From: a virus
Strand: one strand, 5' to 3'
DNA: 12,292 nt
UHGV virus genome: UHGV-0198005
The notes under the pieces are model-generated. The model was not told the DNA's origin. It did not search any database and worked only from the letters and a program-made list of their open reading frames with translations. The position numbers and the translations under genes are program-made. Below, piece by piece: positions 1,945 through 11,263 of the stretch (its first letter is position 1; every line of letters begins with the position of its first letter).

Positions 1945-1970
1945 CGGGTATCACAGATATGACAAACACG

Positions 1971-2003
1971 AAAAAAGCGGCCCCGATATGGAGCCGCCTT
2001 TCT
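1971..2003. terminator. Bidirectional intrinsic terminator (GCGGC-N11-GCCGC), strongest for minus-strand transcripts (A6 on the plus strand = T6 on minus)
   Basis: Hairpin 1977-1997 flanked by AAAAAA upstream and CTTTCT downstream, located between convergent alpA (+) and the minus-strand operon ending at 2093. Confidence 0.5.
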
Positions 2004-2092
2004 GAACAATTAACCCGCTGCGCCTTATGTGTATATGATCCCAAACATAAGCACGGGGATGATAGCCGCTATCAGGCTGGTGGGCAATGCAA

Positions 2093-2281
2093 TCAGTCTG
2101 GTTCAGTTCGTTGCCATACCTGCAATGAGCGCTTTTCCCTGTATTCTTTAAGGAATTGCTCAAGGGCAAAAGCACATGGCGCGAATCTTTCTGATTCATG
2201 CTCTATCTTTCTGCGCCGTCTTTTCCGTGCCGGTGATAATGTTTTGGTCAATTCTTTATCGGTCATTGTGTTGTCCTGCAT
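2093..2281 (-). CDS. Hypothetical small basic protein (62 aa), second gene of the minus-strand regulator operon
   Basis: ORF lies 42 bp downstream of the RHH-like gene on the same strand and is followed by the terminator at ~1971-1997. Arginine-rich stretch SPARKRRRRK. No clear ribosome-binding site. Confidence 0.35.
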   Translation of the reverse strand: MQDNTMTDKELTKTLSPARKRRRRKIEHESERFAPCAFALEQFLKEYREKRSLQVWQRTEPD

Positions 2282-2323
2282 AGCAATGCGCCGTAATACC
2301 TTACACCACGGCGCTGATGGTGA

Positions 2324-2629
2324 TTACTCTGGTTCTTTGGTCTTGCGGCGCTGGAGTTCTTCACGTGCGACAGTGACGAGCTGCCCGATCTCCTCGGCGG
2401 CTTTGATTCCGAGTTTTTCCACCTGCGCCAGTGCATCGTGCGAAGAAATCAGGGGGTTTTCTCCGCTTCCTTCTGCCTGGCGGCGGGCGATTTCACCGCG
2501 CATGGCGGTTACTATGAATCCGGCGTTGCTTTCACCGTCCAGTTTTACGGATTCCATGCCTTCAATAACATCATGCGGGATCCGAGCTGTCAGTGATTGT
2601 GATTTTGCGTTTTTTGAACCTGTAGCCAT
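2324..2629 (-). CDS. Ribbon-helix-helix-like DNA-binding protein, candidate island repressor/regulator
   Basis: ATG at 2629 preceded by GAGAGGA; the ORF track's upstream TTG at 2644 is less likely. N-terminal SQSLTARIPHDVIEGMESVKLDG fits the RHH beta-strand/helix pattern (inference from motif, not searched). Divergent from the rightward operon across an operator-rich region. Confidence 0.6.
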   Translation of the reverse strand: MATGSKNAKSQSLTARIPHDVIEGMESVKLDGESNAGFIVTAMRGEIARRQAEGSGENPLISSHDALAQVEKLGIKAAEEIGQLVTVAREELQRRKTKEPE

Positions 2630-2644
2630 CTGTAATCCTCTCAA

Positions 2645-2825
2645 TGAAAGTGTAAGACAATATACACATAAAAAGTCTTACATAAAAGCATTGACATGTA
2701 AGCCACCTATAAATAAAGTTACTTACACCTTGTTAATGCAAGGTGCAGAAACGACGAAACCCCGCACTGTAGGAGCAGTAACGGGGCTTCTAACCACCAA
2801 CGATAGCAAGATTATCGAGGCAGCT
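2645..2825. promoter_or_regulatory. Divergent control region: two similar operators built from TGTAAG half-sites (O1 2651-2682, O2 2697-2728), sigma70-like promoter (TTGACA 2691-2696, 17 bp, TAAAGT 2714-2719) reading rightward, plus IR CACCTTG-N6-CAAGGTG
   Basis: Half-sites and promoter hexamers read directly in the sequence; the arrangement is classic for a repressor-controlled lytic-type operon. Confidence 0.5.
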
Positions 2826-3026
2826 ATGAGAAATTATACCATACACCCGCAAGGGCGGGACTCGTACAACCTGAATAAATACATCTGGCGTTTTATCGCC
2901 CTGAGCACGGCACAACCGCGCGTGATTACCATCGAGGCCACCAGCGAACAGGAAGCGCGTCAGCAATCTCCGGCTGGCTGCGTGATGGTATTTGCTGCCC
3001 GTATTCGTCAGGGGGTAGGCTTATGA
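2826..3026 (+). CDS. Hypothetical protein (66 aa), first gene of the rightward operon
   Basis: GAGG 5 nt upstream of the ATG at 2826; stop overlaps the next start (ATGA). It is the only protein-like part of the otherwise spurious 355-aa ORF 1959-3026. Confidence 0.45.
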   Translation: MRNYTIHPQGRDSYNLNKYIWRFIALSTAQPRVITIEATSEQEARQQSPAGCVMVFAARIRQGVGL

Positions 3027-3918: not shown

Positions 3919-4218
3919 ATGAAACTTAAATATTCTGGCTTAACTGCCAGTGGCAACACTCACCCTAAATTTACGCGCGGCGATATTTACCGCGACCAGT
4001 ACGGCGGCACGGTAATGATTAAGGGCGTGGCGGGACGGTGCGTAACTTACCGCCGTGAAGGTTACGAATATGATTGCGTGATGCCTGTTTATCAGTTCCG
4101 GCGTGATTTTTCTCTGGTACAGACCGCGCCGCATAACGTGCCCACCAGCAACGCCAGGGCACGGGCAAACATCCAGAAGCTGAAAACCATGATTAACGGA
4201 TTCAGGGGTAAAAAATGA
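3919..4218 (+). CDS. Hypothetical protein (99 aa)
   Basis: ORF with GGAG upstream; stop overlaps the primase start (ATGA). Confidence 0.6.
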   Translation: MKLKYSGLTASGNTHPKFTRGDIYRDQYGGTVMIKGVAGRCVTYRREGYEYDCVMPVYQFRRDFSLVQTAPHNVPTSNARARANIQKLKTMINGFRGKK

Positions 4219-5969
4219 AACTGGCACCGAACGTAAAACAGCAGTCACGCGGCATAAAACACAAAGGAACAGAAGTCATTATTTTTGCGGGTAGTGATGC
4301 CTGGGCACACGCGAAACAATGGCAGGAACATGATGCGCGTATGGCCGGAGATAATGAGCCTCCTGTGTGGCTTGGGGAGCAGCAGTTATCAGAACTGGAT
4401 AAGCTGCAAATTGTGCCGGAAGGCAGAAAATCCGTGCGCATATTCAGGGCCGGATATCTTGCGCCAGTAATGATAAAGGCGATTGGTCAGAAGCTGGCGG
4501 CGGCAGGCGTACAGGATGCAAATTTTTACCCTGATGGTATGCACGGTCAGAAGGTGGAGAACTGGCGCGAATATCTGGCCCGTGAGCGCCAGAATCTTTC
4601 TGATGGTCTGGTCATTGAGCTTCCGGTAAAGCAAAAGGCGCAACTTTCGCAGATGGCGGACAGTGAGCGCGCGCAGCTGCTTGCCGATCGCTTTGATGGC
4701 GTTTGCGTACATCCTGAAAGTGAAATCGTTCACGTATGGCGCGGCGGGGTATGGTGTCCGGTCAGCACAATGGAACTTAGCCGCGAAATGGTGGCGATCT
4801 ATTCAGAGCACAGGGCCACTTTCAGCAAGCGCGTAATCAATAACGCCGTGGAAGCGTTAAAAGTTATTGCCGAACCAATGGGCGAGCCGTCCGGCGATTT
4901 GCTGCCGTTCGCCAATGGTGCGCTTGACCTGAAAACGGGGGAATTTTCCCCGCACACGCCGGAGAACTGGATCACCACGCACAACGGCATTGAGTACACG
5001 CCACCAGCACCAGGGGAGAACATCCGCGATAACGCGCCAAACTTTCATAAATGGCTTGAGCACGCAGCCGGAAAAGACCCGCGCAAGATGATGCGTATAT
5101 GTGCCGCGCTGTACATGATTATGGCGAACCGGTACGACTGGCAGATGTTTATTGAGGCCACCGGAGACGGCGGGAGCGGTAAAAGTACATTCACACACAT
5201 AGCCAGCCTTCTGGCAGGGAAACAAAACACGGTAAGCGCTGAAATGACATCGCTTGATGATGCTGGTGGGCGTGCGCAGGTTGTCGGGAGTCGTCTTATC
5301 GTCCTGGCAGACCAGCCGAAATATACAGGCGAAGGAACGGGCATCAAGAAAATCACGGGCGGCGACCCCGTGGAAATTAACCCGAAATATGAAAAGCGTT
5401 TTACGGCGGTAATCAGGGCGGTGGTGCTGGCAACCAATAACAATCCGATGATATTCACCGAACGGGCCGGAGGTGTGGCACGTCGTCGGGTGATATTCCG
5501 GTTCGATAACATCGTAAGCGAGGCAGAAAAAGACAGGGAGCTACCGGAAAAGATCGCGGCTGAAATCCCTGTCATTATCCGCCGCTTGCTGGCGAACTTT
5601 GCCGACCCTGAAAAGGCACGGGCTTTACTCATTGAACAGCGTGACGGTGATGAAGCACTGGCAATAAAGCAACAGACGGATCCGGTTATTGAGTTTTGCC
5701 AGTTCCTGAATTTTCTGGAGGAAGCACGCGGCCTGATGATGGGCGGCGGTGGCGATTCAGTGAAGTACACGACCAGAAACAGCCTTTACCGCGTCTATCT
5801 GGCGTTTATGGCGTACGCAGGCAGGAGCAAACCGCTAAACGTAAATGACTTTGGCAAGGCTATGAAGCCAGCCGCGAAAGTTTACGGACATGAATATATT
5901 ACGCGGAAAGTTAAAGGAGTAACGCAGACTAACGCAATAACAACAGACGATTGCGACGCGTTTTTATAA
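4215..5969 (+). CDS. Replication initiator: primase/helicase with phage-plasmid primase P4-family (D5_N-like) region and P-loop NTPase domain
   Basis: 584-aa ORF. Walker A GDGGSGKST (EATGDGGSGKSTFTHIASLLAG) and a putative Walker B LIVLAD; upstream NGALDLKTGEFSPHTPENWIT resembles the D5_N/primase-C motif. Immediately followed by an iteron array. Confidence 0.85.
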   Translation: MKLAPNVKQQSRGIKHKGTEVIIFAGSDAWAHAKQWQEHDARMAGDNEPPVWLGEQQLSELDKLQIVPEGRKSVRIFRAGYLAPVMIKAIGQKLAAAGVQDANFYPDGMHGQKVENWREYLARERQNLSDGLVIELPVKQKAQLSQMADSERAQLLADRFDGVCVHPESEIVHVWRGGVWCPVSTMELSREMVAIYSEHRATFSKRVINNAVEALKVIAEPMGEPSGDLLPFANGALDLKTGEFSPHTPENWITTHNGIEYTPPAPGENIRDNAPNFHKWLEHAAGKDPRKMMRICAALYMIMANRYDWQMFIEATGDGGSGKSTFTHIASLLAGKQNTVSAEMTSLDDAGGRAQVVGSRLIVLADQPKYTGEGTGIKKITGGDPVEINPKYEKRFTAVIRAVVLATNNNPMIFTERAGGVARRRVIFRFDNIVSEAEKDRELPEKIAAEIPVIIRRLLANFADPEKARALLIEQRDGDEALAIKQQTDPVIEFCQFLNFLEEARGLMMGGGGDSVKYTTRNSLYRVYLAFMAYAGRSKPLNVNDFGKAMKPAAKVYGHEYITRKVKGVTQTNAITTDDCDAFL

Positions 5970-6256: not shown

Positions 6257-6535
6257 ATGCACACTTCAGGGAAATTTAATAAATCACTCAAAAAACGCAG
6301 AGACAGAACAGAACCGAAATATCGCGCGTTAGACATGACAGAGCACGCTTTAAAGGTGGCAATCAGAACGATAGACCGACACGTAGGGGAAGGATACGCG
6401 AAGGAACATCCCGACCTGATAAGCGCATTCATGACCACAGCAGCGGCAAACTTTGCCACGCTGACAGAACGGGAGATTGCCGAAGCGGAACAGGTAACAA
6501 CCATCAACGTTAAAACCGGAGAGGTGGAATCATGA
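6257..6535 (+). CDS. Hypothetical protein (92 aa), co-transcribed with ssb
   Basis: GAGGGGG ribosome-binding site ~11 nt upstream; stop overlaps the ssb start (ATGA). Confidence 0.6.
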   Translation: MHTSGKFNKSLKKRRDRTEPKYRALDMTEHALKVAIRTIDRHVGEGYAKEHPDLISAFMTTAAANFATLTEREIAEAEQVTTINVKTGEVES

Positions 6536-6954
6536 CAGCACAGATAGCCGCTTACGGGCGGCTGGTGGACGACCCGCAGGTAAAACAGACCAGCAAGGGC
6601 ACACCGATGACGCTGGCGCGTATGGCGGTCCCCCTTCCGTGCAGCCAGGCAGATGACGGAACGGCGACGATGTGGTTATCCGTCCTGGCATTTGGCAGAC
6701 AGGCCGAAGCACTGGAAAGGCACCGCAAGGGTGAACTCCTGAGCGTGGCGGGTAACATGCAGATCAGCCAGTGGACTGGGCAGAACGGAGAAACGCGGCA
6801 GGGCTGGCAGGTTATCGCAGACAGTGTAATCAGTGCGCGAACGGCGCGACTGGGCGGCAAAAAAGGTCAACAGGGCCAGGCTACTGACGCGCTGAACAGG
6901 GCAAAACAACAGGCGGGGAATGATGATCCGTACGGGGATAACATACCGTTTTAA
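6532..6954 (+). CDS. ssb: Single-stranded DNA-binding protein (SSB) homolog
   Basis: 140-aa ORF with an OB-fold-like N-terminal region, a Gly/Gln-rich linker and an acidic C-terminal tip DDPYGDNIPF, matching the conserved SSB tail (D-D-D-I-P-F in E. coli SSB, recalled). Confidence 0.8.
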   Translation: MTAQIAAYGRLVDDPQVKQTSKGTPMTLARMAVPLPCSQADDGTATMWLSVLAFGRQAEALERHRKGELLSVAGNMQISQWTGQNGETRQGWQVIADSVISARTARLGGKKGQQGQATDALNRAKQQAGNDDPYGDNIPF

Positions 6955-6968
6955 GCGACGAGTGACAG

Positions 6969-6992
6969 AAGCCGGAGCAATCCGGCTTTTTT
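6969..6992 (+). terminator. Rho-independent terminator (AAGCCGGA-GCAA-TCCGGCTT + T6)
   Basis: 8-bp stem, tetraloop and T-run 15 bp after the ssb stop. Confidence 0.65.
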
Positions 6993-7166
6993 ACGGGTCC
7001 TCCTGGCGGGGTGGGCCTGAACACGGGGCGGGAGGCGCGGAAAAAAGCGCATTTTTGTGATTTTATCGTCATCATCATCATGAGCGTAATTTATTGTTTT
7101 TAATTGTTTTGATGCAAAAAAGATGATGGTTGTGGTTAATTTTCGTTCGACATCTTTGCAGGCAGA

Positions 7167-7208
7167 TAAAAAAGCCCGATAAGGTCAGAGGTGGCTTATC
7201 GGGCTTTT
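7167..7208. terminator. Terminator-like hairpin (AGCCCGATAAG-N11-CTTATCGGGCT) flanked by an A-run and a T-run
   Basis: Perfect 11-bp stem; A6 upstream and T4 downstream make it potentially bidirectional. No adjacent CDS explains it. Confidence 0.45.
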
Positions 7209-7285
7209 GCATATGAGGCTTTTTGGTGCACTGACACACATGATCGGGATAATCATTTCATAATTTGCAACGCAACTCAACATCA

Positions 7286-7334
7286 TTGCACAAAATGCAA
7301 TCATGATTATAATCAGAGCTGGATGAACATCCAG
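7286..7334 (+). promoter_or_regulatory. Sigma70-like promoter (TTGCAC, 16 bp, TATAAT) with perfect palindrome CTGGATG-AA-CATCCAG at the predicted start site; candidate regulated head-operon promoter
   Basis: -35 at 7286-7291, -10 at 7308-7313, palindrome at 7319-7334, ribosome-binding site AAAGAGGAA at 7353-7361 before ATG 7370. Confidence 0.5.
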
Positions 7335-7369
7335 TTATGATTTTTTAAGTCAAAGAGGAATTTCTTACT

Positions 7370-7576
7370 ATGGCTGAAGAGAAAAAAGGCGGTGTTTCGG
7401 TGTACATAAGCCCCGACATCGTGAAGGCGCTCAAGGAACGCCACCAGCAGAACGTAAAAGCAGGCATTGCGGCAGGACTTGATCCGCTGGCGATGGTTGA
7501 GCCGTCAACAGGCTGGCAGGTACGCTCCTATTTACGCGCGGCGCTGGGCATAAATCAGACTCATGGGGGTGAATAA
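7370..7576 (+). CDS. Hypothetical protein (68 aa), first gene of the head operon; possibly a small RHH-like regulator or scaffold/size-determination factor
   Basis: Strong ribosome-binding site; stop overlaps the capsid gene start (TAATG). VSVYISPDIVKALKERH resembles an RHH strand-helix pattern (weak inference). Confidence 0.55.
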   Translation: MAEEKKGGVSVYISPDIVKALKERHQQNVKAGIAAGLDPLAMVEPSTGWQVRSYLRAALGINQTHGGE

Positions 7577-8631
7577 TGGCAGTCAAAGCAATGGCACTTA
7601 ACACACACCAGCTTTTCGCGTACCTGAATCGCGAGGATATTGCGGAATTTAAATTTAGTCCGCTGTTTACCGCGCTGTTTTTCCCGAACGTGGCGACATT
7701 CAACACGCAAAACATCATGCTGGATACCCTGGACATTGAAGAAGTCACCATGTCGGCGTTTTGTTCGCCTATGGTGGGTAGCCAGGTTCAGCGCGATAAA
7801 GGGTACGAAACCAGCACGATTAAACCTGGCTACATGAAGCCAAAGCACGAAATCGATCCAACGAAAACCATCATGCGCATGGCTGGAGAAGATCCGGCAC
7901 AGCTTAACGACCCTACCTATCGCCGTATGCGCCTGATTACTGGCAATATGCGCCGCCAGATAAACGCCATAAAAGCGCGCGTGGAATGGCTGGCGGTAAA
8001 TGCGGTAACGACCGGAAAAAACATCATTGAGGGCGAAGGCATAGAGCGCTATGAAATCGACTGGAAGATACCGGAAAAAAACATCATAGAGCAGGCCGAC
8101 GGGAAAAAATGGTCAGAGCAGGACAAAGAAACCCACGATCCAATCTATGATATCGAACTATACGCCGATCAGGCTGGTTGCCCCGCAAACGTCATGATTA
8201 TGGGCGTTGAGGTATGGCGAACGTTACGCAGCTTTAAAAAATTCCGTGAGCTGTACGATCTTTCCCGTGGTTCAGAGTCCGCCGCAGAGCTGGCCTGTAA
8301 AAACCTGGGCGAAGTGGTGAGCTTTAAAGGCTATCTGGGCGATATTGCCCTTATCGTCTATTCCGGCAAATACACTGACAGCGACGGCACAGAAAAATAT
8401 TTCCTTGATCCTGATTTGCTGGTCCTGGGCAACACCAACAACAAAGGGCTGGTGGCCTATGGTGCGATTATGGATCAGGAAGCGGTAAGAACAGGCGCAA
8501 CGCAAAACATGTACTACCCGAAAAACTGGATTGAGGACGGCGATCCGGCGATTGAGTACGTGCAGACGCACAGCGCACCGCAGCCGGTTCCGGCAGATAT
8601 TCGCAAATTTGTTACCGTCAAAATTGCTTAA
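7576..8631 (+). CDS. Major capsid protein, lambda gpE-like (HK97 fold)
   Basis: 351-aa ORF aligning along its length with recalled lambda gpE: FKFSPLFTALFF / FKFDPLFLRLFF; PGYMKPKHEIDP / PGYVKPKHEVNP; EDPAQLNDPTYRRMR / EDPQNLADPAYRRRR; RGSESAAELACKNLGEVVSFKGYLGDIALIVYSGKY / RGSNSELETAVKDLGKAVSYKGMYGDVAIVVYSGQY; YYPKNW..GDPA...SAP. Confidence 0.92.
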   Translation: MAVKAMALNTHQLFAYLNREDIAEFKFSPLFTALFFPNVATFNTQNIMLDTLDIEEVTMSAFCSPMVGSQVQRDKGYETSTIKPGYMKPKHEIDPTKTIMRMAGEDPAQLNDPTYRRMRLITGNMRRQINAIKARVEWLAVNAVTTGKNIIEGEGIERYEIDWKIPEKNIIEQADGKKWSEQDKETHDPIYDIELYADQAGCPANVMIMGVEVWRTLRSFKKFRELYDLSRGSESAAELACKNLGEVVSFKGYLGDIALIVYSGKYTDSDGTEKYFLDPDLLVLGNTNNKGLVAYGAIMDQEAVRTGATQNMYYPKNWIEDGDPAIEYVQTHSAPQPVPADIRKFVTVKIA

Positions 8632-8642
8632 CGGGGGATTCT

Positions 8643-8978
8643 ATGGACACTCCATACATTGAGTTATTTGCAGGCAGTCAGCAGGTATCCACGACGCTGG
8701 TACATTTTGCCGCTGATGCTGGCGTTATTCAGGAATTTACCCCGCTGATGCTGGCGGACAATGGCGAGTTTAAGCCGTGGGATGGTCAGGAATCTGGCAA
8801 GGCTGTTTATCTGACTTCGTACCTCGTGGACACGTCAAAGCAGAAATCAGCACAGTGTTACAAGACGGGGATATTCAATATTGCCGCCGTTAACTGGCCT
8901 GAGAGCGTCGACACCGATGCGAAAAAATGCGCCGCCTTTGCGGGTTCTGGCGTATCCGTTCAGCCGCTGGCCCGATAA
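8643..8978 (+). CDS. Head decoration protein, lambda gpD-like
   Basis: 111-aa ORF with TPLML, WDG, YKTGIFN...WPE and KKCAAFAGSGVSV matching recalled lambda gpD (TPLML..WDG..YKSGTF..WPE..KKRTAFAGTAISIV); similar length (~110 aa). Confidence 0.85.
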   Translation: MDTPYIELFAGSQQVSTTLVHFAADAGVIQEFTPLMLADNGEFKPWDGQESGKAVYLTSYLVDTSKQKSAQCYKTGIFNIAAVNWPESVDTDAKKCAAFAGSGVSVQPLAR

Positions 8979-8990
8979 GCAGGGGGAACG

Positions 8991-9404
8991 ATGGCAACGA
9001 ATGAAAGCATCATGGCGCTACCGCTGGCGAGTAAATTTAAAGCCGAAGCGCGGGCAATGGCTGACAGAGGTTTATCAACCTACGAGGCCGTATATCAACT
9101 CAACAAACTGGAAGAGCAGGACAAGCCGCGCGCTGATGCGATTATGGCGCTTCATGAGCATAAAGACTATCAGCCGCTGTTGCGTGCAATGGCAAACGTG
9201 CCTTGTATCGATGTTGATACGGCTAAAAACATCCTGAACATGACCATAGAGCAGGAACGCCCGAAGGTTGCACCAGAGCTTACCGCAGCCTTTGAAAACT
9301 TTATGGACATGCACAGCCCACAAACCGTATCAGCTGGCATGGCATACGATGGCAGAAACCCAGGCGATGACGGCGACATCGATCGCATACTGAAAACCAT
9401 CTGA
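8991..9404 (+). CDS. Hypothetical protein (137 aa), last gene of the head operon; lambda gpFI-like position and size but no visible similarity
   Basis: ORF with GGGGGA ribosome-binding site, followed by a terminator and the cos site. Functional guess is positional only. Confidence 0.6.
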   Translation: MATNESIMALPLASKFKAEARAMADRGLSTYEAVYQLNKLEEQDKPRADAIMALHEHKDYQPLLRAMANVPCIDVDTAKNILNMTIEQERPKVAPELTAAFENFMDMHSPQTVSAGMAYDGRNPGDDGDIDRILKTI

Positions 9405-9409
9405 GACAA

Positions 9410-9431
9410 GGCCGGAGAAATCCGGCTTTTT
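9410..9431 (+). terminator. Rho-independent terminator (GCCGGA-GAAA-TCCGGC + T6) abutting cosQ
   Basis: Stem-loop plus T-run directly after the 8991-9404 stop. Confidence 0.65.
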
Positions 9432-9432
9432 T

Positions 9433-9609
9433 GCGGGTCCTTCCTGGAATTATGGCCCGTTACGGGGCGGCGACCTCGCGGTTTTTCGCTATTTATGAGC
9501 TTTTTCAGGGGGGTGGTGGTGGTTTTGTTGTTTGCTCTATCTTTATGAATGAAAAGGGAAAGATGCAAACAATACACCAACCTGAAGCAGTAATTAAGTT
9601 GGTGTATTA
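9433..9609 (+). other. Lambda-type cohesive end site cos1 (cosQ-cosN-cosB); cosN 12-nt overhang GGGCGGCGACCT at 9465-9476; cosB diverged from lambda
   Basis: TTACGGGGCGGCGACCTCGCGGTTTTTCGCTATTTATGA matches the recalled lambda cos junction (ACGGGGCGGCGACCTCGCGGGTTTTCGCTATTTATGAAAA) almost base for base, then diverges. Lies directly upstream of the Nu1-like gene as in lambda. Confidence 0.8.
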
Positions 9610-10152
9610 ATGAAATCGCACCTGATGAACAAAAAAAACATGGCGAAAAGCTGCCGTGTAAGTGCGACAGCGTTCGACAAGTGGGGAGTGACTCCCGTTG
9701 AACGTAAAGGCCGTGAGGCGTTTTACGATGTTGCCAGCGTGATAGACAATAGGGTTAACAATGCAATTAGCCAGCTTACAAACGACAAAGGCGATATTGA
9801 TGATGATGAACTCTTACGAGTCAGGATCAGATTACTGACAGCACAGGCGGAGGCGCAGGAACTTAAAAACGAGCGCGATCGCGGTGACGTGATTGATACT
9901 GAGTTTTGCCTGTACGCGCTTTCAAAGCTGGCGAGTCAGATTTCATCAATCATGGACAGCCTCCCGCTTACTATGCAAAGGAGCTTCCCACAGATTACCC
10001 CCGCCATGCTGGATAGGCTTAAAAGGGAAGTGGTTAAAGCCTGTAATGCCAGTGCCAGAGTTGCCGACAACCTCCCACAGATACTGGCTGATTACTTGAA
10101 AGAAACAACCGGAAACGTACCGGAAAAGTTGCTACAGAAGAAAGGCGAGTAA
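9610..10152 (+). CDS. Terminase small subunit homolog, lambda Nu1-like (candidate Rpp-type packaging-redirection protein); true start may be the ATG at 9625
   Basis: LTAQAEAQELKNERDRGDVIDTEFCLYALSKLASQISSIMDSLPLTMQRSFPQ aligns with recalled lambda Nu1 LTRAQADAQELKNARDSAEVVETAFCTFVLSRIAGEIASILDGLPLSVQRRFPE; N-terminus MNKKNMAKS.. parallels Nu1 MEVNKKQLADIF. No large-terminase gene follows. Confidence 0.85.
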   Translation: MKSHLMNKKNMAKSCRVSATAFDKWGVTPVERKGREAFYDVASVIDNRVNNAISQLTNDKGDIDDDELLRVRIRLLTAQAEAQELKNERDRGDVIDTEFCLYALSKLASQISSIMDSLPLTMQRSFPQITPAMLDRLKREVVKACNASARVADNLPQILADYLKETTGNVPEKLLQKKGE

Positions 10153-10159
10153 CAGACGC

Positions 10160-10375
10160 GCAATTATTGAACAAAACTGAGAAACGACATGAAAGCGTCA
10201 TAAATCGCCATTTTAGATGATTACCGTGTCGTTTCTTTTTATTGTGTATCTATTTAAAAACAAATAGTTATGTTCGAGAAGTACCGACATGCTTTTTCCA
10301 GAAAAATTTTCATAAACAGATAAAAACCGCGAGGTCGCCGCCCCGTAACGGGTCCATAATTCCAGGAAGGACCCG
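10160..10375 (-). other. Second lambda-type cos site (cos2) in inverted orientation; cosN at 10332-10343 on the minus strand, with lambda-like cosB elements (R-site-like GAAACGACA / TGTCGTTTC, TTTATGAAAATTTT)
   Basis: Reverse complement of 10322-10375 is CGGGTCCTTCCTGGAATTATGGACCCGTTACGGGGCGGCGACCTCGCGGTTTTT, identical to cos1 apart from one indel. Continuing on the minus strand, TTTATGAAAATTTTTCTGG, CATAACTATTTGTTTTTAAATAGA and AAAGAAACGACAC...TGTCGTTTCTC parallel recalled lambda cosB (R3/I1/R2/R1 region). Confidence 0.7.
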
Positions 10376-10408: not shown

Positions 10409-10582
10409 ATGACAGAAGCCGAAATACTGGGATTAATCCGCCGTGCTGGTGGAATCAGCCAGCAGACTGACGAACAGGCCACGCAGCCGGACAGCGTGAC
10501 AGCCGAAAATTATGCGCGTGTTGTTGCTGAGGTGATGCGCCGTGATGGTATCCAGCTTAATGATGTGGATATGCGTTCTTGA
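10409..10582 (+). CDS. Hypothetical small ORF (57 aa), weakly supported
   Basis: ATG-initiated ORF below the ORF-track size cutoff with only a weak GGTG upstream; acidic, helical composition. May be a remnant. Confidence 0.25.
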   Translation: MTEAEILGLIRRAGGISQQTDEQATQPDSVTAENYARVVAEVMRRDGIQLNDVDMRS

Positions 10583-10664
10583 AATGCTGGCCTACAATCG
10601 CCGCGTGGCACTGTATCGGGAAACGGAGAAAATTACATACCACTGGAAGAAGCCGGAGCGGTTG

Positions 10665-10890
10665 CGGCGGTAACTGGTTGATATTTTCGAAATTCGCCAG
10701 CGGCGAACATCGGGGAAACCAGCCTAACCCGTTGATATTTTCGGGAACCTCAAATTGAGGAGGTCGGAAACATAACCCGTCATATTCTGGATGCTGATAA
10801 TTACCACGCAGCCCATTAAGGCCTAACCCGTTGATTCTTTCGGAAACAGCCATTGGCGTAATCCGGCGCGGTAACTTGCTGAACTTAAAG
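10665..10890. repeat. Degenerate ~50-bp tandem repeat array (about 5 units), each unit starting TAAC(C/T)(C/G)GTTGATATTTTCG-like
   Basis: Unit starts at ~10669 (TAACTGGTTGATATTTTCG), 10724 (TAACCCGTTGATATTTTCG), 10774 (TAACCCGTCATATTCTGG), 10825 (TAACCCGTTGATTCTTTCG), 10871 (TAACTTGCTGAACTTAAAG); spacing 46-55 bp. Confidence 0.5.
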
Positions 10891-11263
10891 CAAAGCGCAA
10901 AATTGCGCTGGCTGGTGGGCATGATGCCGATATGGTGATCCCCATAACGGAAATATCCACCAGCACGGCAACGGCAGAATAGCCACAACACAGAAAAACC
11001 ACGAATATGGGGTTTTTGTTATGGCATGGGCATGATGACCGCCCCTGCTCTGAATGGTGGAAATCACCACGCAGATCATCCACCAGCTTCGTTTTTATAA
11101 ATTAAACATCCGGGAAAATCCGACCCTGAATTGTGCATTTTTTCAGCAAATCATTTTAGTTATACGTTTGGTTATACGGTTTAAAAGTTGAATCATATAC
11201 ATTATTTTAAATCATGAAGTTACACGCTCAATTAAACTACTCTCGTGGACCAAAAATCCCAAG

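Follow-up and report, generated by a model that had tools for sequence, protein, structure and literature searches.

Why would a phage satellite carry genes for the shell of a lambda-like head, and none for the portal, the protease or the large terminase subunit (TerL)? The question is raised by positions 7370–9404 of a stretch of 12,292 nucleotides from UHGV virus genome UHGV-0198005 (hereafter the window, to which coordinates refer; features lie on its plus strand unless stated). The window matches an island of E. coli Nissle 1917 with 0 mismatches and one 17-bp deletion as the only difference, identifying it as the Nissle 1917 copy, at tRNA-Pro/yejO, of a Gram-negative phage-inducible chromosomal island (PICI) of the EcCICFT073 type. 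A preliminary description of the sequence had recognised four open reading frames (ORFs) at 7370–9404, including a gpE-like capsid and a gpD-like decoration protein, and this was borne out by ORF scan, Pfam, PHROG and BLASTP. Gene content likewise agrees with its view of the locus as a satellite island, distinct from capsid-forming PICIs (cf-PICIs); the island also has its own small terminase subunit (TerS).

The same description presented the arrangement as a departure from known systems, which it is not. The capsid/decoration cassette has already been published as part of EcCICFT073, the model PICI of E. coli CFT073, in which c1499 is the capsid gene and c1500 the decoration gene (PMC6092414). 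A capsid gene occurs in 21 of 29 reference Gram-negative PICIs, as their commonest late gene (PMC10111431), and the paper on cf-PICIs uses EcCICFT073 as an example of a classical PICI (bioRxiv 10.1101/2022.09.08.507074). Our analysis adds to this picture the identity of a third shell gene, very probably a scaffold remnant, which makes the cassette a coherent shell unit; the placement of the capsid genes in an ancient, satellite-only clade under selection; and the observation that the cassette has its own conserved upstream region and is flanked by cos sites. From these we tentatively read the cassette as an auxiliary source of shell proteins.

Shell genes of the cassette

The 351-residue product of 7576–8631 is a major capsid protein of the lambda gpE family, within a satellite clade. 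It matches Pfam Phage_cap_E (PF03864) at 3.4e-52 over residues 27–349 and the PHROG major head protein profile at 7.7e-110, and shows 44% identity to lambda gpE over 328 residues and 45% to phage 21 gp7 (BLASTP); an earlier estimate by eye, that about half of the residues match gpE, was slightly generous but fair. Comparison with the lambda gpE chain 7VI9 gave E = 2.3e-83, and the protein matches PDB entry 3BQW ('putative capsid protein of prophage', CFT073) from end to end at E = 3e-234; 3BQW is the crystal structure of c1499, the EcCICFT073 capsid ortholog. The decoration gene (8643–8978) starts 11 nt downstream of the capsid gene, a position directly behind the capsid gene that it holds in all PICIs examined. 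Its 111-residue product belongs to the gpD/SHP family of head decoration proteins (Pfam HDPD, PF02924, 5.7e-17), with 36% identity to gpD and 43% to phage 21 SHP; it matches PDB entries 1TD0 and 1C5E, and the closest solved structure is that of phage 21 SHP, 1TD0.

Behind the decoration gene lies a 137-residue ORF (8991–9404), which is very probably a free-standing remnant of a scaffold of the Nu3/gp6 type, devoid of the protease domain. Its product matches phrog_1999 at 4.4e-65; the whole of that profile is matched by residues 64–200 of phage 21 gp6 (1.8e-69), and lambda Nu3 also matches it (2.7e-26). Residues 49–131 align with the extreme C-terminus of phage 21 gp5/gp6 (36% over 83 residues, E = 6e-10, BLASTP), and there is a weak match to the C-terminal end of phrog_53 ('head maturation protease'), at positions 494–567 of 583. 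In multiple alignment, the protein and the lambdoid scaffolds have motifs in common through to the C-terminal tail, such that the ORF corresponds to the C-terminal two-thirds of a lambdoid scaffold. Gene order points the same way: a PICI of Lelliottia, whose capsid protein is 59% identical, has in the slot after capsid and decoration a full 447-residue gpC homolog, 50% identical to lambda gpC, and the C-terminal region of that homolog matches both phrog_1999 and the 137-residue protein. The ORF is not a full-length scaffold set in frame within a protease gene; it stands alone and aligns to residues 64–200 of phage 21 gp6 only, and no S49 protease domain was found in the island. Because tblastn against all phage records gave no match to the 137-residue protein at database-wide thresholds, the assignment rests on pairwise alignment, profile matches and synteny. 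A HMMER search of 1.84 billion representatives with the protein returned nine hits.

Two other identities for the 137-residue protein were considered. As a gpFI-like or terminase-docking factor, the role first proposed for it, it showed no similarity to FI (BLASTP E = 0.83), FII (0.23) or phage 21 ORF1 (24). The name given to the family at NCBI, 'phage head-tail connector protein', was not reproduced by NCBIfam, Pfam or PHROGs.

The cassette opens with a 68-residue ORF (7370–7576; phrog_3255, 1e-36), whose stop codon overlaps the start of the capsid gene by 1 nt. Homologs were found only in enterobacterial genomes and metagenomes, in genomic contexts that were PICIs in every case examined, and among all phage records tblastn gave no match that passed database-wide thresholds. 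Pfam and NCBIfam searches detected no function, and neither Foldseek against the PDB nor a profile search of PDB sequences returned anything significant; the size-determination or docking role suggested for this ORF thus found no support in the searches. A ribbon-helix-helix regulator was suspected but gained no support, the AlphaFold2 model consisting of just two helices with a predicted local distance difference test score (pLDDT) of 74.

Pfam and PHROG profile scans covered 24 island ORFs, among which there was no match to portal, protease, TerL or connector families, and no lysis genes, tail genes or complete head module. The island ends at tRNA-Pro/yejM on the left and at yejO on the right, and no phage-like genes adjoin it in Nissle 1917, which excludes the case, raised in the preliminary description, of portal or protease genes lying just outside the window. 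The claim that all other head-assembly genes are absent thus holds for portal, protease and TerL; it fails for the scaffold, which had been assigned to the helper alone and of which the island encodes a truncated Nu3/gp6-type homolog. The island comprises capsid, decoration and scaffold genes, and the unit therefore represents the shell-specific parts of a lambda head; the parts that belong to the unique vertex and the motor (portal, protease, gpW/FII, TerL) are absent. PADLOC defence models matched none of the proteins.

A satellite-only lineage of capsid genes

Across 50,697 phage records, the best capsid match was only ~48% identical. Homologs at 54–97% identity were found in Escherichia, Salmonella, Edwardsiella, Lelliottia, Serratia, Cedecea and Scandinavium, and every context examined in this range was a PICI with the order capsid then decoration, whereas phages, lambda and phage 21 included, have decoration then capsid. 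A 37%-identical homolog, by comparison, sits in a normal lambda-like head operon of TerL, gpW, portal, protease, decoration and capsid genes. In a neighbour-joining tree, calculated without support values, all capsid proteins from PICI contexts group together, with lambda and phage 21 as their sister group. Pairwise ratios of non-synonymous to synonymous substitution rates (dN/dS) between PICI lineages were 0.13–0.17 for the capsid gene, 0.10–0.19 for the primase gene and ~0.3 for the decoration gene. The satellite capsid genes form a clade to themselves, in which purifying selection matches that on the primase in strength, and are therefore old residents of satellites kept by selection and not decaying relics. 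None of the PICIs examined had a broken cassette ORF, and 493 complete E. coli genomes contain most of the cassette region; DNA related to the island, in whole or in part, occurs in 1909 of 5426 such genomes (about a third). A scan of contigs from a one-genome-per-species collection with the capsid protein returned nothing at all and is uninformative for that reason.

The closest characterised relative is EcCICFT073, which has the same series of int, alpA, pri, SSB, 68-residue, capsid, decoration and 137-residue (c1501) genes, then a packaging-specificity gene between two cos sites, and the 93-residue gene. The four cassette genes probably correspond to c1498–c1501; c1498 is presumed to be the 68-residue gene because it lies directly ahead of c1499. 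Identities to the island of the window are 97% for the capsid protein, 97% for the decoration protein, 94% for the 68-residue protein, 93% for the 137-residue protein and ~100% for the primase (dN 0.001). The two islands differ in site (pepT/phoQ in EcCICFT073) and in integrase. EcCICFT073 encodes the 144-residue RppA (c1503), which hijacks the helper TerS (PMC6739421), in the slot where the window has a 180-residue Nu1-type TerS, and a PerC-like gene ahead of the cassette, where the window has an extra cos-like site of the Stx-phage type. Set against lambda and phage 21, whose head genes belong to the same families (Nu3/gp6 at ~27–36% identity in the scaffold), the island scaffold is free-standing and lacks the N-terminal third and the overlapping protease, and the island is without portal, protease, gpW, FI, FII and TerL.

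Composition varies among the cassettes examined, in which the capsid-decoration pair is the only constant part. A Salmonella PICI (L006, 9777–12235) has a small ORF, capsid and decoration genes and no scaffold remnant; an E. coli lineage (L007, 10001–12490) has an AlpA-like 114-residue gene in the scaffold slot and no 68-residue gene. The Lelliottia sp. PICI introduced above (L010, 8774–12337) has capsid, decoration and a full-length gpC-type S49 protease-scaffold; it also encodes a 142-residue Rpp-like protein and, close to alpA, a head-closure protein (Hc1). Cf-PICIs such as EcCIEDL933 have the same PICI-type int/alpA/rep backbone and likewise a satellite-encoded capsid; they carry a full set of capsid, protease, portal, connectors, HNH, TerS and TerL (bioRxiv 10.1101/2022.09.08.507074), whereas the island of the window has shell parts and TerS only, with portal, protease, connector, TerL and HNH genes neither in it nor beside it. 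With its additional gpC protease and head-closure gene, the Lelliottia relative lies between the two, its set of head genes being richer than in classical PICIs and poorer than in cf-PICIs.

Two further relatives lie within phage genes or prophages. In an E. coli metagenome contig (L008, 2511–14073), a lambda-like E gene is interrupted by a related PICI, leaving fragments of 91 and 254 residues; this is the helper-embedded configuration described for 11capE (PMC10111431). This PICI has capsid, decoration and TerS genes as its late genes, as does the island of the window (capsid proteins 56% identical), and differs from it in its position inside a helper E gene, in an AlpA-like gene that replaces the scaffold remnant and in the lack of a 68-residue gene. 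In Salmonella enterica (L011, 3292–14165), a PICI with gpE- and gpD-type genes is located within a P2-like prophage, immediately ahead of a tail sheath gene truncated at its 5′ end. P2-type phages are not known to have gpE-type capsids, and the arrangement looks like a helper-embedded satellite in a myovirus whose own capsid would be of another family.

Control region, cos sites and the rest of the island

Ahead of the cassette, a conserved non-coding stretch (7246–7358), delimited by comparison of E. coli and Salmonella PICIs, appears from its sequence to be the cassette's own promoter and control region. It contains TTGCA-containing repeats, a TATAAT at 7305–7310, the palindrome CTGGATGAACATCCAG at 7319–7334 followed by a T-run, and an AAAGAGG ribosome-binding site. 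Its ~110 bp are almost invariant between PICIs of E. coli and Salmonella, whose capsid proteins are 69% identical and whose capsid genes are saturated at synonymous sites (dS ~1.7). The RNA of this region folds with z = −3.4, and the hairpin was classed as terminator-like; the 16-nt palindrome and T-run stand at the predicted transcript start, and they might serve as an operator, form a hairpin that stabilises the 5′ end of the transcript, or act as a terminator until antitermination overrides it. Nothing pointed to a helper late promoter of the Q type ahead of the cassette, since no phage DNA similar to 7246–7358 was found.

Two hairpins separate the replication genes from the cassette. One is terminator-like, with a T-run, and opens a segment (6971–7160) that goes on to a third cos-like site, which we call cosA (~6990–7160); the other is an inverted repeat between cosA and the promoter region (7163–7215; 21-nt arms, 86% complementary). 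Alignment with the lambda and phage 21 cos sites places a cosN-like GGGCGGGAGGCG at ~7026–7037 in cosA, and the cosA region is 90% identical over 158 nt to the intergenic region between Rz and terS of Stx phages. The two copies of a 31-nt direct repeat (6971–7001 and 9411–9441) enclose the cassette. On its far side, cos1 (9411–9609) comprises a hairpin with a T-run, a cosQ-like stretch, the lambda-type cosN GGGCGGCGACCT at 9465–9476 (plus strand), which is the same as that of lambda and phage 21, and a presumed island-specific cosB just upstream of terS. The TerS gene (9610–10152) encodes a 180-residue Nu1-type protein (Pfam Phage_Nu1, 2.3e-23) with full-length identities of 35% to lambda Nu1 and 33% to phage 21 gp1. 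Beyond it lies cos2 (10256–10375, minus strand; cosN at 10332–10343), inverted relative to cos1 and forming with it an inverted repeat (9434–9505 and 10303–10375). Over 94 nt, cos2 is 90% identical to phage 21 cos, and its flank resembles the phage 21 cosB (I2/R3/I1). The three cos-like sites thus appear to differ in specificity (Stx-phage type, lambda-type with an island-specific flank, inverted phage 21-like), which may point to adaptation to several helper types; alternatively, the cassette may have been acquired by recombination at cos.

The remaining genes are those of a Gram-negative PICI. Such islands are marked by a terminal integrase, att repeats, a size of ~10–15 kb and alpA with pri/rep, all of which were found, together with two lambda-type cosN sites around a Nu1-type TerS for the redirection of packaging. 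In Nissle 1917, both island ends carry a 26-nt att-like direct repeat, the two copies being 11,257 bp apart; the right one falls at 11154–11179, with yejO beyond it, and the left one a little way before the first position of the window, so that the window contains an essentially complete island. From ~11240 onward the window is chromosomal yejO, with flank homology in all E. coli genomes, and genomes without the island carry the flanking sequence alone. The tyrosine integrase gene (1–1242; Pfam Phage_integrase, Phage_int_M and Arm-DNA-bind_3) has tRNA-Pro 218 bp upstream of it in Nissle 1917. The island genes are co-directional, alpA and the primase module running in the same direction as int: an AlpA-type regulator/excisionase (1738–1944; PHROG excisionase and transcriptional regulator, 5.5e-7), whose positional counterpart in another PICI (L009) matches Pfam Phage_AlpA, is followed by several small genes, a D5-type primase/replicase (4215–5969; D5_N, DUF5906, Pox_D5) and a single-stranded DNA-binding protein (6532–6954; Pfam SSB, 4.9e-15). 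A YlcI/YnfO-family gene at 2324–2629 (minus strand) overlaps frames similar to the cell-division inhibitor Icd in 1959–3026, one of which is annotated as a pseudogene in Nissle 1917. Downstream of cos2, comparison with the Nissle 1917 island shows that the 17-bp deletion, at 10572/10573, frameshifts a conserved 93-residue gene (10409–10673; phrog_1561).

Possible roles of the cassette

Published experiments on these genes were done on EcCICFT073 and not on the island of the window. Of the two islands, EcCICFT073 is also the one for which helper-driven induction, excision and transfer at high frequency have been demonstrated (PMC6092414). Deletion of c1499 or c1500 neither restored lambda plaques nor changed transfer by resident CFT073 prophages, and islands marked as c1499::cat and c1501::tetA were both transferred (PMC6092414). 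With lambda as helper, packaged DNA was all phage-sized, and the authors state that the capsids are full-size (PMC6092414). When the EcCICFT073 genes downstream of ori were each expressed alone from pBAD18, only c1503 (RppA) lowered lambda plaques (PMC6739421). Lysates of an island in which melA replaced c1498–c1501, with a phi80 helper lacking cosN, still transduced recipients (PMC10460865). The deletions and the phage-sized DNA therefore leave obligatory satellite-built or small capsids unsupported, and chimeric particles are not implied by gene content; the preliminary description had drawn that implication, with a possibly smaller triangulation number (T), in conflict with these results on orthologs that are 93–97% identical.

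We favour, tentatively and at somewhat under even chances, the reading that the cassette is an auxiliary supply of shell proteins for heads of lambda size that would form on helper portals. Once a helper is induced, transcription would start at the cassette's own promoter; the satellite capsid protein, with or without an admixture of helper gpE, and the island scaffold would then build lambda-sized heads on portals supplied by the helper. These heads would be processed by the helper protease and filled by the helper TerL. Island TerS would direct TerL to cos1, some four island copies would be packaged per head (4 × 11.2 kb = 45 kb), and the satellite decoration protein would stabilise the product. 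The argument for such a role is indirect. The cassette consists of shell parts only, its capsid gene is accompanied in every case by a decoration gene and often by a scaffold gene, selection on it is strong, and it has a conserved upstream region of its own. The parts needed for the use of helper TerL (TerS, cos sites) are present in the island, and phage-sized packaging and dispensability in EcCICFT073, by analogy, would fit an auxiliary role in full-size heads. Where a helper supplies plentiful compatible capsid protein, the cassette would be redundant, which would explain why its deletion gave no laboratory phenotype in the sister island.

A number of points weigh against an auxiliary shell supply. 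Deleting c1499, c1500 or the whole c1498–c1501 block permits transfer, and cassette-deleted islands therefore need nothing more than helper proteins; indeed, the c1499::cat island transfers better than the c1501::tetA island, a difference that its authors explain by island size (PMC6092414). The experimental ground is the sister island throughout. Expression of the cassette on induction and entry of its proteins into particles are what we infer, and it is uncertain whether a capsid protein 44% identical to gpE would interact productively with helper portal, protease and terminase. The AlphaFold2 model of the 137-residue protein is all-helical and of low confidence (pLDDT 47).

Other explanations would give the cassette a different purpose or none. 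With the right natural helper, the capsid protein and short scaffold might use helper portals to build small heads (T = 3 or T = 4), with room for one or two island genomes but not for that of the helper, in the manner of Ccm of SaPIbov5. Ccm, too, is a capsid homolog from a cos-type satellite lacking portal and protease genes; according to its report (PMC8569155), it fills the pentamers of T = 4 procapsids, turning prolate heads into small T = 4 heads and blocking the helper, and appears without a decoration or scaffold homolog, unlike the island. A Gram-negative PICI with a capsid gene, PmCI172, makes small capsids (PMC6092414), the island scaffold is truncated relative to Nu3, and the packaged-DNA size of EcCICFT073 was reported for lambda as helper only. 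Even so, we consider size redirection quite unlikely: with lambda, the EcCICFT073 orthologs neither shrink heads nor block the helper, the c1499 and c1500 deletions alter neither interference nor transfer by resident prophages, four island copies fit a lambda head, and small-head packaging of a cos island would need the cassette, yet a cassette-less island transfers. The c1499 and c1500 deletions, which did not relieve interference, and the single-gene expression screen, in which RppA alone was active, also speak against the proposal that capsid, decoration or scaffold co-assembles with or titrates the parts of lambdoid phages, spoiling the heads of the helper or of a competing non-helper to the benefit of island or host cell. 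PICIs commonly disturb phage assembly, proteins of the helper's family at 44% identity are typical of dominant-negative subunits, and the cassette is under selection though unneeded for transfer. A poison subunit, however, would need no matched decoration protein and scaffold, and the defence models found no match. That a matching decoration gene always accompanies the capsid gene, often along with a scaffold gene, would fit a self-consistent lattice better than a lone poison subunit, and we regard interference as unlikely.

Integration habits suggest a further explanation. Relatives integrate in the late genes of helpers, often in E, and a satellite copy could cover the interrupted function; in the tRNA-integrated island of the window, the gene would then merely be inherited. 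The PICI inside a lambda-like E gene (L008), as for 11capE, agrees with this, and the Salmonella PICI (L011) also lies beside a truncated gene, that for the sheath. The prophage there is P2-like, though, a type not known for gpE-type capsids, so the gpE-type gene of that PICI would not be a copy of the interrupted one. Most of the PICIs examined in the clade are chromosomal (the window island, EcCICFT073, L006, L007, L009, L010), with capsid dN/dS still at 0.13–0.17, and redundancy is noted as not essential by the authors who described the embedded islands (PMC10111431); a back-up copy is accordingly improbable in our estimate. Least credible, at a very low probability, is a non-functional relic of a captured head operon. 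Gene deletions without phenotype and the frameshift in the neighbouring 93-residue gene would agree with decay, but the cassette ORFs are intact in each PICI and widespread among E. coli genomes, the putative control region ahead of them is conserved, the ortholog is a folded protein that has been crystallised (3BQW), and purifying selection equal to that on the primase largely refutes it.

Besides the auxiliary supply that we favour, a stronger, non-redundant role is conceivable, if unlikely: with natural helpers, satellite capsid, decoration and mini-scaffold would build the shell, possibly of smaller T, on a stolen helper portal. It is to this that the two embedded relatives point, one inside a helper E gene and the other inside a P2-like prophage. 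If true, these islands would bridge, in function, the classical PICIs, which take over complete heads, and the cf-PICIs, which take tails only, and could exploit helpers whose capsid protein is unavailable or unrelated. As matters stand, the genes are widespread and under strong purifying selection, yet no function was found for them in EcCICFT073, the only system tested. Should the cassette proteins build or alter particles, our view of satellite gene transfer, of helper range and of PICI-based delivery vehicles would have to be revised.

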